The notes under the pieces are model-generated. The model worked only from the letters and a program-made list of their open reading frames with translations, searched no databases and was not told the origin of the DNA. A stretch of 64,000 bases of DNA from Callorhinchus milii (lineage: Eukaryota), in contig NW_024704743.1 of assembly GCF_018977255.1 (NCBI RefSeq), positions 25,360,001-25,424,000 of the forward strand, in the 5' to 3' direction. Of the stretch, positions 8,851 to 19,700 are shown piece after piece (position 1 is the stretch's first letter; each line of letters begins with the position of its first letter). The position numbers and the translations under genes were made by a program.

Positions 8851-9411
8851 AGGTGAACAGATATTGACGGTCCAATACACCAATATATAATACAGATTTT
8901 TTACTGCATGTACACAGGTACTTTTCTATTTAGTTATATTAATGGTCTTTCTTAATATACAATATTGCTGTTACATTTTCTGTACATTGGTATATACTGT
9001 ATTGGTTTGCAGCACTGATGTTACACTGTTGGATGTAATATTGGTGTTATATAGTACTGAATAATTTGCTATTACGCAATTAGTACCAGTGTTCGTTAAT
9101 TATCAAATATCTGTATACAGCAACTTGTGCCCAGGCCTTGGATTCCCCGAAACCAATCCGCTGGCAGCTTGCCATTGAGGAAAACCCTACAGAAGTGACT
9201 TTATACCGAATACTGTTGGAGGGCTATTGGATTGACGTTGTAACTACAAATATGTAGCTTCAGCTCTATATTCCCCATCACATTTTTGGCAAGGATACAA
9301 GCCTACGGAGACTAATAGATTAAGGGTTGGTCAGGGGTTGACACTTTACTTCAAAAGTGTTAACGATTCAGCCTTTGCAATTTATCTTTTCTGCCTGTTC
9401 AGGTGGATGTT

Positions 9412-9713
9412 GTGGAGTCCTGTAGCTCAGTGGTTAGAGCACTCGCCTTGCAAGCGACATACCTGGGTTCAATTCCAAGCAGGGCGAAACCTTGGGCAAG
9501 TTTCCTTACTTCACACGCCTAATAATAATCCCTCCAGAAAATAAAAAAAATAATAAATTGGTCATTTTCAATCCACGACTGTTTGTGGAACACAGCTGTG
9601 TGCAATTGGCTGCCGCGTTTTGCCCACAAATATAGTCAATTTACTTAAAGCATATTCTGTGAAGCGCTTTCAGATGTCTAGAGGACGTGAAAAGCACTAT
9701 ATCAAATGCAAGG

Positions 9714-9766
<53 letters not shown>
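9412..9766 (+). mobile_element. Full-length young tRNA-Ala-derived SINE, short form (resembles SINE2-1_CM as I recall it)
   Basis: A box TAGCTCAGTGG, anticodon loop CTTGCAA, B box GGTTCAATTCC, TGGCTGCCGCGTTT body, L2-type 3' stem-loop, long (TTA)n tail; ATGTT TSD. Confidence 0.92.
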
Positions 9767-12348: not shown

Positions 12349-12699
<351 letters not shown>

Positions 12700-13355: not shown

Positions 13356-13937
13356 GTCGGGTTACCGATTGAGTTAAGCTTGTATCCCATGAAGCTGCAT
13401 TGAAAGACATAGCGATTGCAATACAATGTTAGACACTGAAATCTTTAGGCCCAATTCAGGAGGTGAGGGCGTTCACACCAGTCTTTAGGAATAGATGGAA
13501 AAATGTAAGATTCAATTCTTCATTGAATTATTATAAAAATATAGTTCTTTCCCTTGCGCTTCTATTCAAGCAACAATTAAAGCTAAGTTGATACACTTTA
13601 TGTAATTCTGATGCTTACATAAGAATATCTAATGATTGACACGTTATTCAACCTGTTATGAAACATCACATCTTTCAACCCAGTGTGGATATGATATACT
13701 GTATATTTTGATGTGTAGGATCTTCAAAGGAGTGCCCTACCAACCTGCCTGCTCTCTTGGCTCAGCGGGCTCCGGCCTGCTTCATGTCCCCTGCCTTGCC
13801 CTCCCCACCATTGGCGTGCGGGCCTTCTGCCACTCTGTTCCTTAATTTTTGTGGATGATGAACCACTGAGCTACACTACTATTCTCTGACCCACAAGTGT
13901 ATCCAGGTTTACAGTTACTGTAAGTTACTACAGTTAC

Positions 13938-14067
13938 TGTCCCCAGTGACTCCTGTTTTTGTTGTAAGAATTCTAACCCGCCAGACTGAAAGTCAATGGG
14001 TGCCACCAATGAATTGGGAGATGGACAAGAGGGGGCCTGCAGATGCTTTTTGATACGTTTTAAGAAG
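13938..14067 (+). repeat. Exact 130-bp duplicate of 15311-15440
   Basis: Base-by-base comparison shows no mismatch; flanked by scrambled TTACAG/CTGTAA repeats. Confidence 0.95.
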
Positions 14068-14736
14068 TTACTGTAAACCTGTAAAGTTACAGTTACCACA
14101 GTACCATGCCTTTGTATGGGATGGACACTTCTGCCCCCTTCACAAATACCTTTTGCACCCACCCCAGATATGAACCCAAACTAAATGATTTAATAATCCT
14201 TGCATTTGACATAGCGCCTTATCACGTCTTTGAGACGTCTCACAGAATATACTGTAGTGAAATGACTGTATATTTTGTGGGTGAAATGATTTGCAAGAGA
14301 AAGCTGTACAAGTCAAGTCAAATCAAAGTTGCCTCCAGAACAAATAGCTCTGCAAAAATGAAATTATGCTGGTCTCAATTAGACAGTAACCTTTACAGAA
14401 AGAGGAGTTATAATACAGGGAGAAATTGAAACTCTCGACCCTGGCCAAGTTGCCTTGAAACTCTGTCCAACATCAGCAAATGATCTGCAGCAGTCAATAT
14501 AACTGCAGTGTCTGTGTTAGCTCAGAGTCTCAAAAGGATCTGGTAAAGTCCATAGAACATACTTGTGCTGGATCACACACCACCACCACCTTTAGATGGA
14601 GAGTTCAAAGGAGTTCTTAGTTTTAAGCACACTGCAGTTAGAGACCAGGAGATAGCAAGTCCAGTCTTCAGCTATGGGACTGGCATGCGTGGTGGATGCA
14701 AATATTCTTTGGAGGGGGTTGATAAAATTCAGTTAA

Positions 14737-15055
14737 GTGGAGTCTTGCAACTCAGTGGTTAGAGCACTCACCTTTCAAGCAAGAGACGTGGGTTCAATTC
14801 CTGGCAGGGCGAAACCTTGCGCAAGTTTCCTTACTCTATACGCCTGATAATAATCCCTCAAGAATTAACTAATAATTTGGTCGCTCAATCCACAACTGTT
14901 TGTGGGACACTGCTGTGCGCAATTGGCTGCCGCGTTTTGCCCACAAATATGCAGTCAATTCACTATACAGTATATTCTGTGAAGCGCTTTGAGAAGTCTA
15001 GAAAATGTGAAAAGCACTATATCAAATGTAAGGATTATCATTATTATTATTATTA
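14737..15055 (+). mobile_element. tRNA-derived L2-tailed SINE, short form
   Basis: GTGGAGTCTTG...GGTTCAATTCC head, TGGCTGCCGCG body, (TTA)n tail. Confidence 0.9.
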
Positions 15056-15134
15056 AATGATCAGTCTCCTTTAACACAGACAAGCCATTGGTTCGACTGG
15101 CAAGCCTATCACCCCGTCAGAGGTAAGAACTCTA

Positions 15135-15336
15135 TAGACACAAAATACTGTAGATGTTGGAAATCTGAAAACAAAAACAGAAGTCGCTGGGAACACTCAG
15201 CAGGTCAGGCGGCATCTACGGAGAAAGGAAAGTGAGTCCTGACGAAGGGTCGTGGACCCGAAACGTTGACTCAGTTTCCTTTCTCCGTAGATGCTGCCTG
15301 ACCTGCTGATTGTCCCCAGTGACTCCTGTTTTTGTT
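15135..15336 (+). mobile_element. Penelope-like-element-derived inverted-repeat mini element
   Basis: ~68-bp inverted arms (15170-15238 and 15268-15336) around a hammerhead motif; 12-bp TSD GTAAGAA(C/T)TCTA at 15123-15134 and 15337-15348. Confidence 0.8.
15233..15273 (+). ncRNA. Minimal type I hammerhead ribozyme motif
   Basis: Stem I TGAGTC/GACTCA, core CTGACGA (15239-15245) plus an extra A, stem II GGGTC-GTG-GACCC, GAAAC, palindromic minimal stem III and GTT triplet. Confidence 0.75.
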
Positions 15337-15710
15337 GTAAGAATTCTAACCCGCCAGACTGAAAGTCAATGGGTGCCACCAATGAATTGGGAGATGGACA
15401 AGAGGGGGCCTGCAGATGCTTTTTGATACGTTTTAAGAAGAAAGGACCAATTAACTGGAAACCAGTGAAAGGGGATCAGGAAGTATAAAACAGGATGCAG
15501 GGGGCACTAACTGAAGGGATTTTGGTTGTATTGTTGGATTGTGTATTGAGAGCTGAGAATAAAATAGTGATTTCTACCTTTGAGTTGTGAGAACATAACA
15601 GTGCTGAGGGTTGGAACTGCTTGGAGGACTGGCTGTGGTCCTCCTCAAGGCTCAGGCTTTCCCTCCCCAGCTCCCCTTAAAGAGGTGAGTCCCCTCCAGC
15701 TCCTCTTAAA

Positions 15711-16030
15711 TAAAATAATAATCATTGCATTTGATATAGCGCTTTTCACGTCGGGAGGACGTCCCAAAGCGCTTCACAGAACACACTGTAAAGTGAATTG
15801 ACTGTATATTTGTGGGCGAACGCAGCAGCCAATTGCGCACAGCAATGTTCCACAAACAGTCATAGAATGAAAATGACCAATTTATTATTGTTTTTGGTTT
15901 TGGAGGGATTATTATTAGGTGTGTGGAGTAAGGAAACTTGCCCAAGGTTTCGCCCTGACCTGCCTGGAATTGAACTCAGGTCTCTCGCTTGCAAAGCGAG
16001 TGCTCTAACCACTGAGCTACAGGACTCCAC
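15711..16030 (-). mobile_element. Full-length young tRNA-Ala SINE, short form
   Basis: Intact A/B boxes on the minus strand; CTTAAA TSD at 15705-15710 and 16031-16036. Confidence 0.92.
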
Positions 16031-16179: not shown

Positions 16180-16348
16180 TTTGCCTTTGTCATTCTTTCC
16201 GCGCCCCCTTCTCAGCTTGTCTGCTCCCTTACAACATCCCCCAGTTCTGACAAAAGGTCATTGACCTGAAACGTTAACTCACTTTCCTCTCTCCAGAGAT
16301 ACTGCTTGACCTCCTAAGTGTTCCCAGCGACTTCTGTTTTTATTTTTG
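16180..16348 (+). mobile_element. Penelope-like terminal fragment with degenerate hammerhead
   Basis: AGTT-CTGACAA-A-AGGTC-ATT-GACCT-GAAACGTT-AACT, followed by sequence homologous to the right arm of the 15135 element. Confidence 0.7.
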
Positions 16349-16488
16349 AGACCCAGTTTGTTTAGAGTGATACCCCAAACTAGATAACAATGCTCCCAAC
16401 TGTGGCCTAAACAATGCCTTGTACAAGTGTAACTTTACCTCCTGATCCAATGCCTATATTTATGAAACCTATAATCATAGTCCTGTAT

Positions 16489-16799
16489 GGAGTCCTGTAG
16501 CTCAGTGGTTAGAGCACTCACCTTGCAAGCGAGACAACTGGGTTCAATTCCGGGCAGGGCGAAACCTTGGGCAAGTTTCCTTACTCCACACGCCTAATAA
16601 TAATCCTCCAAAATAAAATAAATAATAAATTGGCCATTTTCAATCCACGACTGTTTGTGGGACACTGCTGTGCGCAATTGGCTGCCGCATTTCGCCCACA
16701 AATATACAGTCAATTCACTTTACAGTCTATTCTGTGAAGCGCTTTGAGATGTCAAGAAGACATGAAAAGCGCTATATCAAATGCAAGGATTATTATTAT
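16489..16799 (+). mobile_element. Full-length young tRNA-Ala SINE, short form
   Basis: GGAGTCCTGTAGCTCAGTGGTTAGAGC head through AAATGCAAGGATTATTATT tail. Confidence 0.92.
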
Positions 16800-19700
16800 A
16801 TAATATTCACTTTAATATGATCTTTTCAAATCTTTGACTGTCCAGTGCATTGGGACATCCTCCAATGTGAAAGATACTATACAAATGTAATTTATTGTTG
16901 TTGCTAGCTTCTACTTGCACTCCCACTTTTAAAGTCCTGCATATCATTATCCTGAACCTTTCCAAAGTTATGAATATTATTATTATTATTATACTTAAAG
17001 GATTTATTTCCTTTTGTTGATCTTCCTCCAAAAAATAATACTTTACATTGTTCTGTGCTGAACACTGGCAGATTGCTTTTTGGTTCTATCTCGGTACTTC
17101 TGTACTTCCTTAGTTCTTCTGTGTATAATCCTGTTCCAATCCTAACTTTTCCCCCCGATCTAACTCTTCATTGCTCAGTGCACTCAATATTGTTGGTCCA
17201 AGATGTCAGTGCTCACACTAACAACTGCTTGAATGGTGCATAGTTACATAAAGTGTATAACTTTAGCTTGAATTGGAACACAAAGTAAAGAACTGTTTAA
17301 ATTTTTATAAGCATCTACAAGAATCCTAATGATGTTCTAATACTTTTTGGCGTACCTGCCATTTGCTTATCAGTGTTGCAATAAATGCCATGAGAATATA
17401 TCCAGAATAAAATAGCCATCAAGTCAAGGGAGATTCAGTTCCTCTTTTTAAAAAAAATTGTGTCCCCTTTGTATTCAAAATGAATTACATATATGCATGC
17501 TGTTTCAGTTAAACACGCTAAAACAACATTAAATCAGTTAATACATCAAACTGGACTCCCCATTGCCTCCACTTATACATAGTTGTTGACATCTGCCTGC
17601 AATCTTCGGGCTTTACAAGCACAGTTTTTGAACGCTCATTAGGATAGTTCCTGACAGTACAAAGTGGATTTTTTCCTCCTTAACTCGTTATTACATATTG
17701 ATCATATTCTGGAGACAGAAGTCAGGCACAACGCTGGCAGGGCCACTGAATTCAATTCTGAACAGAATCCAACATGTGCGATTCCAACCCCTCCTTGTTT
17801 CATCAGGAATCAGTATCTTAAATGCCAGTCTTAAAAACAAAAGGGTGAGTCAACCACACATTTTGTACCCAAGATGTTTGTTGGCATTTTTGGAACTGGG
17901 CTTTTTGTGCAAAATTTATTGTGTGCTGATTAACTTTTGAAATTGCTGACAAATTCTTCATTTAAAGACCAAAGCTATGAGGACTGTATAGTTCAGTGGG
18001 TTCGTGCACCATCCTTTCATTTCTAGGACTAACGGTTACTCAATCCACGACGGTTTATGGAATTGGCGCCATTGGCAGTAGAACTAAATTCCGTAGTCGA
18101 GGTCTTGTGAGATAAATCCTTTACAAGGTTAAAAAGAATGAACTTAAGAGGCATTTATCCTTTTGGTCTTCCCTTACTCTTACTATTTACAGGTTTATAA
18201 AACCCAAACACTTGGAATGTCCAAACACTACCTTGCTTTTTCTCCTGCACGTTTCACCATGTGGGATCCTGCTTTGTGGATCTCCACCTATTGTTTCCAG
18301 TTTAAAAAGAGAGCTTTTCACTTTCAGCCTTTTCCATGTTTATGGTTTCAATAATGAACATAAAGCAAAACTTGGTGCAAACCCTTTGTGTCACTAACAT
18401 ACTCCAGAATAATCCCAGAAGTGTGCTCCTCACATCTGGGCCCAGTCAAACAGCCTTCCGTCAACCTTTATATACAATTTCTGTGTTAAAGACTAAATTT
18501 GGAATTGTGAAGAACTTGTGAACAGAATGGTTTGATTAACAAATTATTGAGGTTTGGGGAAAAGAAGAGGTGCATTTGATCTTAGATGTCCATAAACAGA
18601 AAGAGATGGTGCAAAACATTTGAGGCCCTGCCTTCCAAAGGTTCCTCATTTTTCCTTTGACTTTGTGCCAGGTGGAAAATAGTATCCTTGGTGTGAATGA
18701 TTGATTGGTTTTGACTGTTTAACAGCACATTACATTTTTCCAATATGAGTTTAATTCAATAGACTTATTGCTGGTGGAAGAGAAACACCAGATACATCAA
18801 TTACTGAGCACTGTGGGGTGAAAAATGTATTGGATGCTCTTATTGTCACAGGTGATAAAATTGCAATCCAAGCCAGTTTTTATCTAAAACCCTCCCCCTC
18901 CCATCCACTTTGTAACAGTGGTTTGGCCCAAAGCCTATTTTCAAAATCTTTTGCCACCAAATTGAATTCCCGCTTGATGTCCTGATCCTTTTTCTGTTCC
19001 AGAGTTTGTGTGCTGCTTCACAGGGTATTAGTTACATTGACAAGATTATAAGTTTGGTTCAGATGAGGAAGGCCCTTTGGCCCATTTGATCTCATCCCTC
19101 CACAAAATCCTTCATACCACTAACTATGGCATTAAGTATGGCATTTTTCACTGCTTTTTGACACTCCTGGAATAAATGATATTAAAAATAAAAATAATAG
19201 TAGCAGTTGATACAGTGGTTTATCACGGCTGAACTGTTTCATAACATTTTATACAATGAACAATGAACTAATGATTTATGATCTTGGTGTGAATGATTGA
19301 TTTCCTGACAAGTAATCACACCAGCATCTTCCCACTGAGCTGTTTATTTGTGTGAATTTGGATGAGGGAGGAGCAGGACAATATTTCATCATCTATTGAC
19401 ATACTTGACATAGTTAACAGGGTACAGGGATATTTCAGACTTCCTGAGCCGACCGCTCATGCTGTGAAATGTCAGCAGTAGCTTGGTTGCTGCAATGTTG
19501 ACCCTAAAACTAAAATAAACACCAATAATTTGAAATAACCAAAATTGTAAACTGTTTACTTCTACTAATCTTGTCATCCTTTCCTCCATTATCTCTCCCA
19601 TTCCTTCTCTTCTACTTTTATTTTTAACCCTATCCATATACGTTATTACTTTCCTATTCTCATTATATAAAGCACTTTGAGTGCTCAGATGTACATGAAA

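Follow-up and report, generated by a model that had tools for sequence, protein, structure and literature searches.

A hammerhead-bearing hairpin downstream of an AHRR exon in Callorhinchus milii: a probable 5'-truncated and inverted Penelope-like element insertion

Minimal type I hammerhead ribozymes are a feature of metazoan Penelope-like elements (PLEs). The motifs compiled in PMC4209133 share the core CUGANGA followed by an extra base, a G10.1-C11.1 pair, an NUH triplet, a short native helix I and a palindromic 15.2/16.2 stretch with no loop 3, and occur mostly as single dispersed motifs of truncated elements. The 56 motifs of Fig. S3 of that paper include none from a cartilaginous fish; PLEs themselves are already in print for the elephant shark (PMC4350176). 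Single minimal hammerheads showed no cleavage in vitro and dimers cleaved weakly (PMC4209133), and the ribozyme of an anole PLE required the protein of the element for cleavage (PMC11167929). Insertions of endonuclease-bearing PLEs have a recognisable layout, in which direct and inverted pLTRs stand head-to-head and are accompanied by a 30-40 nt tail, a short target-site duplication (TSD) and strong 5' truncation (PMC8557442, PMC3846280, PMC11167929). PMC8557442 describes an inverted 5'-truncated copy with a tail of 30-40 bp on one side. In a rotifer PLE, direct and inverted copies of the pLTR are accompanied by a tail of 31 bp and a TSD of 9 bp, within a general range of 8-10 bp for the TSDs (PMC3846280); that paper favours self-priming on an antisense template. 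The tail corresponds to the stretch between two reverse transcriptase (RT) start sites, and the anole PLE protein both cuts and extends the two target strands (PMC11167929). Both the motif class, described in 2014, and the insertion layout are therefore already published.

Two further groups of hammerheads are relevant. Non-LTR retrozymes are small, non-coding and PLE-related, carry a type I hammerhead and have been reported from the single chondrichthyan genome examined (PMC7229834; bioRxiv 10.64898/2026.07.22.740005). Intronic hammerheads of amniotes, found in RECK and CTCL introns, are described as conserved and as having tertiary contacts (PMC6155905). The literature search, which lay outside Repbase, Dfam, subscription journals and the supplements of the retrozyme preprint, yielded, judging by titles and the openings of abstracts, no paper on the repeat family described below and none that pairs a hammerhead ribozyme with Callorhinchus.

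The locus lies in a 64-kb stretch of Callorhinchus milii DNA (the window, from whose first letter all positions are counted). A 12-bp direct repeat on the plus strand (15123-15134 on the left and 15337-15348 on the right, 11 of 12 letters identical) encloses 202 bp (15135-15336); in a chance control on 3000 random flank pairs (30 nt each, 214 nt apart), such a repeat turned up in 11. The enclosed sequence consists of two head-to-head copies of a one-armed, hammerhead-bearing repeat end. The direct copy (15268-15336, plus strand) supplies the right arm and the 3' strand of stem I and has no tail; it stops at the same tail-less position as a solo copy at 16233-16346. The inverted copy (15170-15238, minus strand) has an inner end complementary to 15268, the first base past the predicted cut, and its outer end is prolonged by a one-sided tail of 35 nt (15135-15169, minus strand) without a partner on the right arm. 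The direct part thus amounts to 98 nt and the inverted part to 104 nt, and the body of the element is absent. The two arms are complementary over 69 bp except for 6 mismatches, no compensatory pair among them, and form a fold (z = -18.4) that none of 200 shuffles equalled in stability. The changes are divided 5:1 between the arms, a split that is not significant (p 0.22), and the copy appears to have aged without sign of selection. A first-pass annotation made from the letters alone had proposed a 12-bp TSD around 202 bp, inverted arms of about 68 bp and an inverted end of PLE type, all of which are supported; it had overlooked the one-sided 35-nt tail and the solo copy 1 kb downstream. On the minus strand, which is the element's own strand here, a splice-acceptor-like pyrimidine run followed by CAG is found where the repeat end meets the tail (15154-15185). 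PLEs are known to retain introns.

The core of the motif is the 29-nt loop at 15239-15267 on the plus strand, in which CUGACGA and one additional A are followed by stem II, GAAAC and GUU. Stem II is the 5-bp GGGUC/GACCC (15247-15251/15255-15259) closed by a 3-nt loop, and the cut is predicted after 15267. Every core letter announced by the first-pass annotation is present and intact, and its assignment to the PLE-type minimal type I hammerheads is upheld by agreement with the consensus of Fig. S3 of PMC4209133: CUGANGA with an extra base, G10.1-C11.1, stem II, GAAA, a palindromic 15.2-16.2 without loop, NUH and a helix I of at least 4 bp. A minimal-hammerhead descriptor, written for this motif during the analysis, has a single match on both strands of the 64 kb, the hairpin loop, and one match in 300 dinucleotide shuffles. 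The covariance-model check proposed earlier gave no such support, since Rfam searches at E up to 10, Hammerhead_1 included, returned no hammerhead family among their 11 and 3 matches, presumably because helix III is absent. The GUU triplet is no sign of decay: by our own count GAAAC-GUU occurs in 15 of the 56 representative motifs of Fig. S3 (PMC4209133), and GUU is the majority reading in the loose ends of the subfamily of this copy in two public runs (X6 and X11, see below).

The activity of the motif was assessed with a folding model, whose energies omit tertiary contacts and proteins. In the monomer the A15.1-U16.1 pair has a probability of 0.0, and the core bases 15242-15244 are paired instead with 15264-15266 (p 0.97-0.98); identical mispairs are found in the minimum-energy fold of a 1.45 kb context. 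The weak monomer activity foreseen in the first-pass annotation agrees with a helix III that cannot close in the model. An active dimer requires that stem I strands be exchanged between two ribozymes, as established for double hammerheads. Here dimers are predicted to be disfavoured because the 69-bp arm keeps stem I within one molecule. The modelled active homodimer (-252.7 kcal/mol) is 11 kcal/mol less stable than two monomers (-264.0 kcal/mol), although it lies only 1.7 kcal/mol above two monomers whose cores are held open (-254.4 kcal/mol), and the modelled dimer with the neighbouring copy (-109.7 versus -146.2 kcal/mol) is 36 kcal/mol less stable. The motif is genuine, yet the prediction is that an inactive fold traps it. 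In this respect it differs from the minimal hammerheads of PMC4209133, since its helix I extends to 69 bp through its own inverted arm, with a predicted block of dimerization; like most of them, it is a single dispersed motif of a truncated element.

An exon at 12372-12553 (plus strand) encodes the bHLH region of AHRR, its product being 98% identical over 61 residues to Callorhinchus milii AHRR and 89-93% identical to shark and ray AHRR proteins. The predicted cut site follows it by 2.71 kb in sense orientation, as the first-pass annotation had stated (2.7 kb). Four query proteins revealed no later AHRR exon in the remaining 51 kb of the window, so that the position of the hairpin in an intron, behind the donor site of this exon, is inferred. 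Upstream of the element, 43 nt (15080-15122) are bounded by an acceptor-like site on one side and by AG|GTAAGA on the other; the left TSD begins with the donor-like part of the latter. This segment, whose length is not divisible by three and which has no AHRR protein match, is possibly a cryptic exon and possibly a product of chance; the window contains 10 such donor 7-mers on the plus strand. In a pre-mRNA spanning the locus the element would adopt the long hairpin, its core mispaired, and no cleavage at a meaningful rate would follow. Cleavage of the AHRR pre-mRNA, raised earlier as a possibility, is unlikely: stem I is held intramolecularly, both modelled dimers are disfavoured and the neighbouring copy has lost G8.

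The repeat end itself is very abundant, with thousands of copies. Contigs of four public runs were aligned on 15050-15710 at 80% likeness, giving 8673 matching contigs in X2, 3104 in X1, 16423 in X6 and 16383 in X11, counts that include an unrelated repeat at 15425-15700. Depth is concentrated on 15142-15325. The 3' ends of the family fall into two classes, tail-less and tailed: loose ends occur before 15168/15169 and behind 15333, and family contigs run on into the tail, one of them (X6 record 25) matching as far as 15138. The loose ends belong to one-armed copies that run through their own core, and the subfamily of X6 and X11 has the stem II and the GUU triplet of this copy. Of 182 joints, the 15 listed comprise one orthologous skip, 7 same-strand joints from arm to core and 7 strand changes. 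The 7 same-strand joints are all different, each seen in 1 contig per run, with arm ends at 15162-15226 and restarts at 15235-15282; the strand changes are represented by 1-3 contigs per run. In 3 of the 12 rows listed the arms extend 28-35 letters beyond the cut site. At least 6 contigs (among 32 listed of 45,636 pieces) cross the junction zone with 6-17 gap letters, none of them gap-free. These figures depend on short joint sides (22-50 letters, 80% likeness), and copies with a junction identical to that of the hairpin leave no joint row. Fold-backs near stem I therefore recur, but a family of fixed length is not seen, although a minority subfamily may exist. The first-pass annotation had viewed the hairpin as a member of a non-autonomous mini-element family and had named variable lengths among genomic copies as the result that would speak against this; the neighbouring copy at 16233-16346 is not a hairpin, and the fold-back junctions of the public-run contigs vary widely, the listed joints (15 of 182) being all different.

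Two details of the arms bear on their source. A rare variant is common to both (G15287/C15219), the other letter accounting for 89-96% of depth, and this sharing of a variant present in 4-11% of family depth fits an origin from one source RNA. At position 15238, T makes up 78-99% of family depth; the hairpin has C there, which likely comes from the arm. Beyond these runs, pattern scans for family copies gave no match in metagenomes, viral contigs or prokaryote genomes; 20-mer matches at 17 metagenome loci were discarded as chance, none extending past 28 bp. By eye, no RT or GIY-YIG frame was recognised among window ORFs of at least 110 aa.

The orthologous site could be followed in two relatives. 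In X6 as in X11, a single contig connects 15131 with 15547 and thereby lacks a 415-bp block (15132-15546), that is, the element and 198 bp of flank; other letters may lie between. No clean empty site that would confirm the 12-bp TSD was found in these orthologous contigs. The flanks of the two relatives diverge by about 7-9% (a lower bound for the left piece) and the arms by 8.7% (6/69, 95% interval 3-18%). These values overlap and are compatible with insertion after the split as well as with later deletion: the skip may have arisen by a deletion that took the hairpin with it, or by an unrelated one at a site still empty. Either way the hammerhead motif is not conserved at the orthologous site. 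The left break of the gap falls inside the left TSD and could reflect a hairpin-driven deletion. A contig of X1 over 15050-15195 covers the left junction, differing at 2 of 146 letters, which places the element at the locus in that run; no sign of transcription can be read from it, since X1 is only guessed to be RNA. X2 has no depth over 15050-15118, which proves nothing.

The origin that best accounts for the locus is a single PLE insertion, extremely 5'-truncated and inverted, whose motif is predicted to be inactive in this setting (a probability of about 0.8). Its PLE membership, which is likely, rests on anatomy and motif: a head-to-head inverted copy, a one-sided 35-nt tail and a 12-bp TSD. 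A PLE protein acting in trans would nick both target strands 12 nt apart and prime two cDNAs from the two internal start sites of the element, one tailed and one tail-less; both would stop near the hammerhead, and the inverted repeat of stem I (3-4 bp) would serve to join them. Fold-back of a single tail-less cDNA was rejected by reasoning, as it cannot place a tail on the inverted arm only. Compared with the insertions of PMC8557442, PMC3846280 and PMC11167929, the hairpin lacks the element body. It shares with retrozymes their small size, absence of coding capacity, type I hammerhead and PLE kinship; these, however, consist of head-to-tail tandem units with at least two ribozymes, whereas the hairpin is a head-to-head fold-back with one (PMC7229834; bioRxiv 10.64898/2026.07.22.740005). 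A retrozyme identity was dismissed, given the single intact motif, the layout and a next copy that lies 1 kb away with G8 changed.

Other readings account for part of these observations. In one, the hairpin itself might be what is propagated: PLE proteins would retrocopy the transcript of a fold-back master whole, which would give rise to a non-autonomous family. The clean duplication around a compact unit and the contigs crossing the junction zone with few gap letters would agree with this, and a rare variant in both arms could equally be inherited from such a master. We nevertheless consider it unlikely, since the listed joints all differ and are carried by 1-3 contigs per run, no crossing contig is gap-free, the nearest copy is not a hairpin, and a one-sided tail is a known product of ordinary PLE integration (PMC11167929, PMC8557442). 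More intimately linked to the preferred PLE insertion, of which it would be a compatible refinement, is the proposal that the locus records cleavage in vivo, the inverted arm being a cDNA that ran off the 3' cleavage product and was then joined, at stem I, to a second cDNA. The end of this arm lies precisely opposite 15268 and is followed at once by the core, before which native copies of the subfamily carry T and not C. The end of the stem I microhomology explains the arm end equally well, however, and in arms that differ by 8.7% a single T-to-C change since insertion would give the same letter. Moreover most listed junctions lie elsewhere, some arms pass through the cut site, this copy was selected for its neat look, and PMC11167929 reports no reads that end at the cut site and no need for cleavage in vitro. 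Such a fossil is accordingly improbable for this copy. Its extension to the family, in which RT would copy the 3' cleavage product as far as the 5' terminus and inverted arms would accumulate exactly at the cut site, is likewise improbable.

The two remaining readings are more remote. Domestication of the motif for cleavage or regulation of the AHRR pre-mRNA could invoke the sense orientation 2.7 kb behind an exon and the intact core letters. It is very unlikely, because the orthologous contigs of two relatives, with flank divergence of about 7-9%, lack the motif, because helix III is missing, core mispairing is predicted and both dimers are disfavoured in the folding model, and because the sole nearby partner lacks G8. 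With the hammerheads of the amniote introns the sense position in a (here inferred) intron is shared, but those are described as conserved and as having tertiary contacts, whereas the motif of the hairpin is minimal and missing in two close relatives (PMC6155905). Finally, a long inverted repeat with a chance hammerhead might belong to a DNA-transposon MITE or a microRNA precursor, and microRNA models do score the hairpin (best E 2.3e-07). All these matches fall far below gathering (best 41.6 versus 184 bits), and the Rfam microRNA and snoRNA matches to the element, being sub-threshold only, were rejected. The two inverted repeats lack symmetry, the left one is not terminal, the descriptor matched only one of 300 shuffles, and family copies show the same core beside a single arm, all of which makes this reading extremely improbable.

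The remainder of the window contains few relatives of the element. A profile search of the 64 kb recovered the three known segments and one 130-bp duplicate only, the other 12 of 16 matches having E of at least 0.35. The solo copy (16233-16346, also delimited as 16243-16346, plus strand) is a second, non-hairpin and tail-less copy of the repeat end, 79 of 98 positions being identical to 15239-15336. Its core reads CUGACAA, with G8 changed to A, and it has a native 4-bp stem I. No clear TSD was found around it, only imperfect candidates of 8-9 bp, and pyrimidine-rich sequence from about 16178 may be a further part of the element. The duplicate (13938-14067, plus strand) is an exact 130-bp copy of 15311-15440 that comprises the 3' end of the element, the right TSD and flank, and is younger than the hairpin insertion. 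It sits 1.37 kb upstream of its source between patchwork junctions (about 13905-13937 and about 14068-14100) built of short local direct and inverted repeats of 7-12 nt. An independent contig (X2 record 18) matches exactly 15311-15440 with 0 differences and continues on both sides. The arrangement resembles a templated insertion of the polymerase-theta type. Two other repeats are present in the neighbourhood. An abundant repeat of about 320 bp (14737-15055, 15709-16030, 16488-16807, 9411-9735 and others, copies 85-90% alike) is likely a SINE, with a 5' part that looks tRNA-like by eye, and a separate older repeat lies at 15425-15600, many contigs starting at 15425 and stopping near 15600.

Taken by itself, the 202-base hairpin is likely ordinary genomic debris and matters little, being a PLE-type end like very many others in the genome of this cartilaginous fish. 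It illustrates that cleavage cannot be read from an intact hammerhead core in an intron, since the motif is predicted to be caught in the fold-back. Should the inverted arms nevertheless derive from cleaved transcripts, the head-to-head insertions would provide genomic evidence of in vivo cutting that shapes them, and thousands of genomic junctions would test the role of the PLE hammerhead in vivo.
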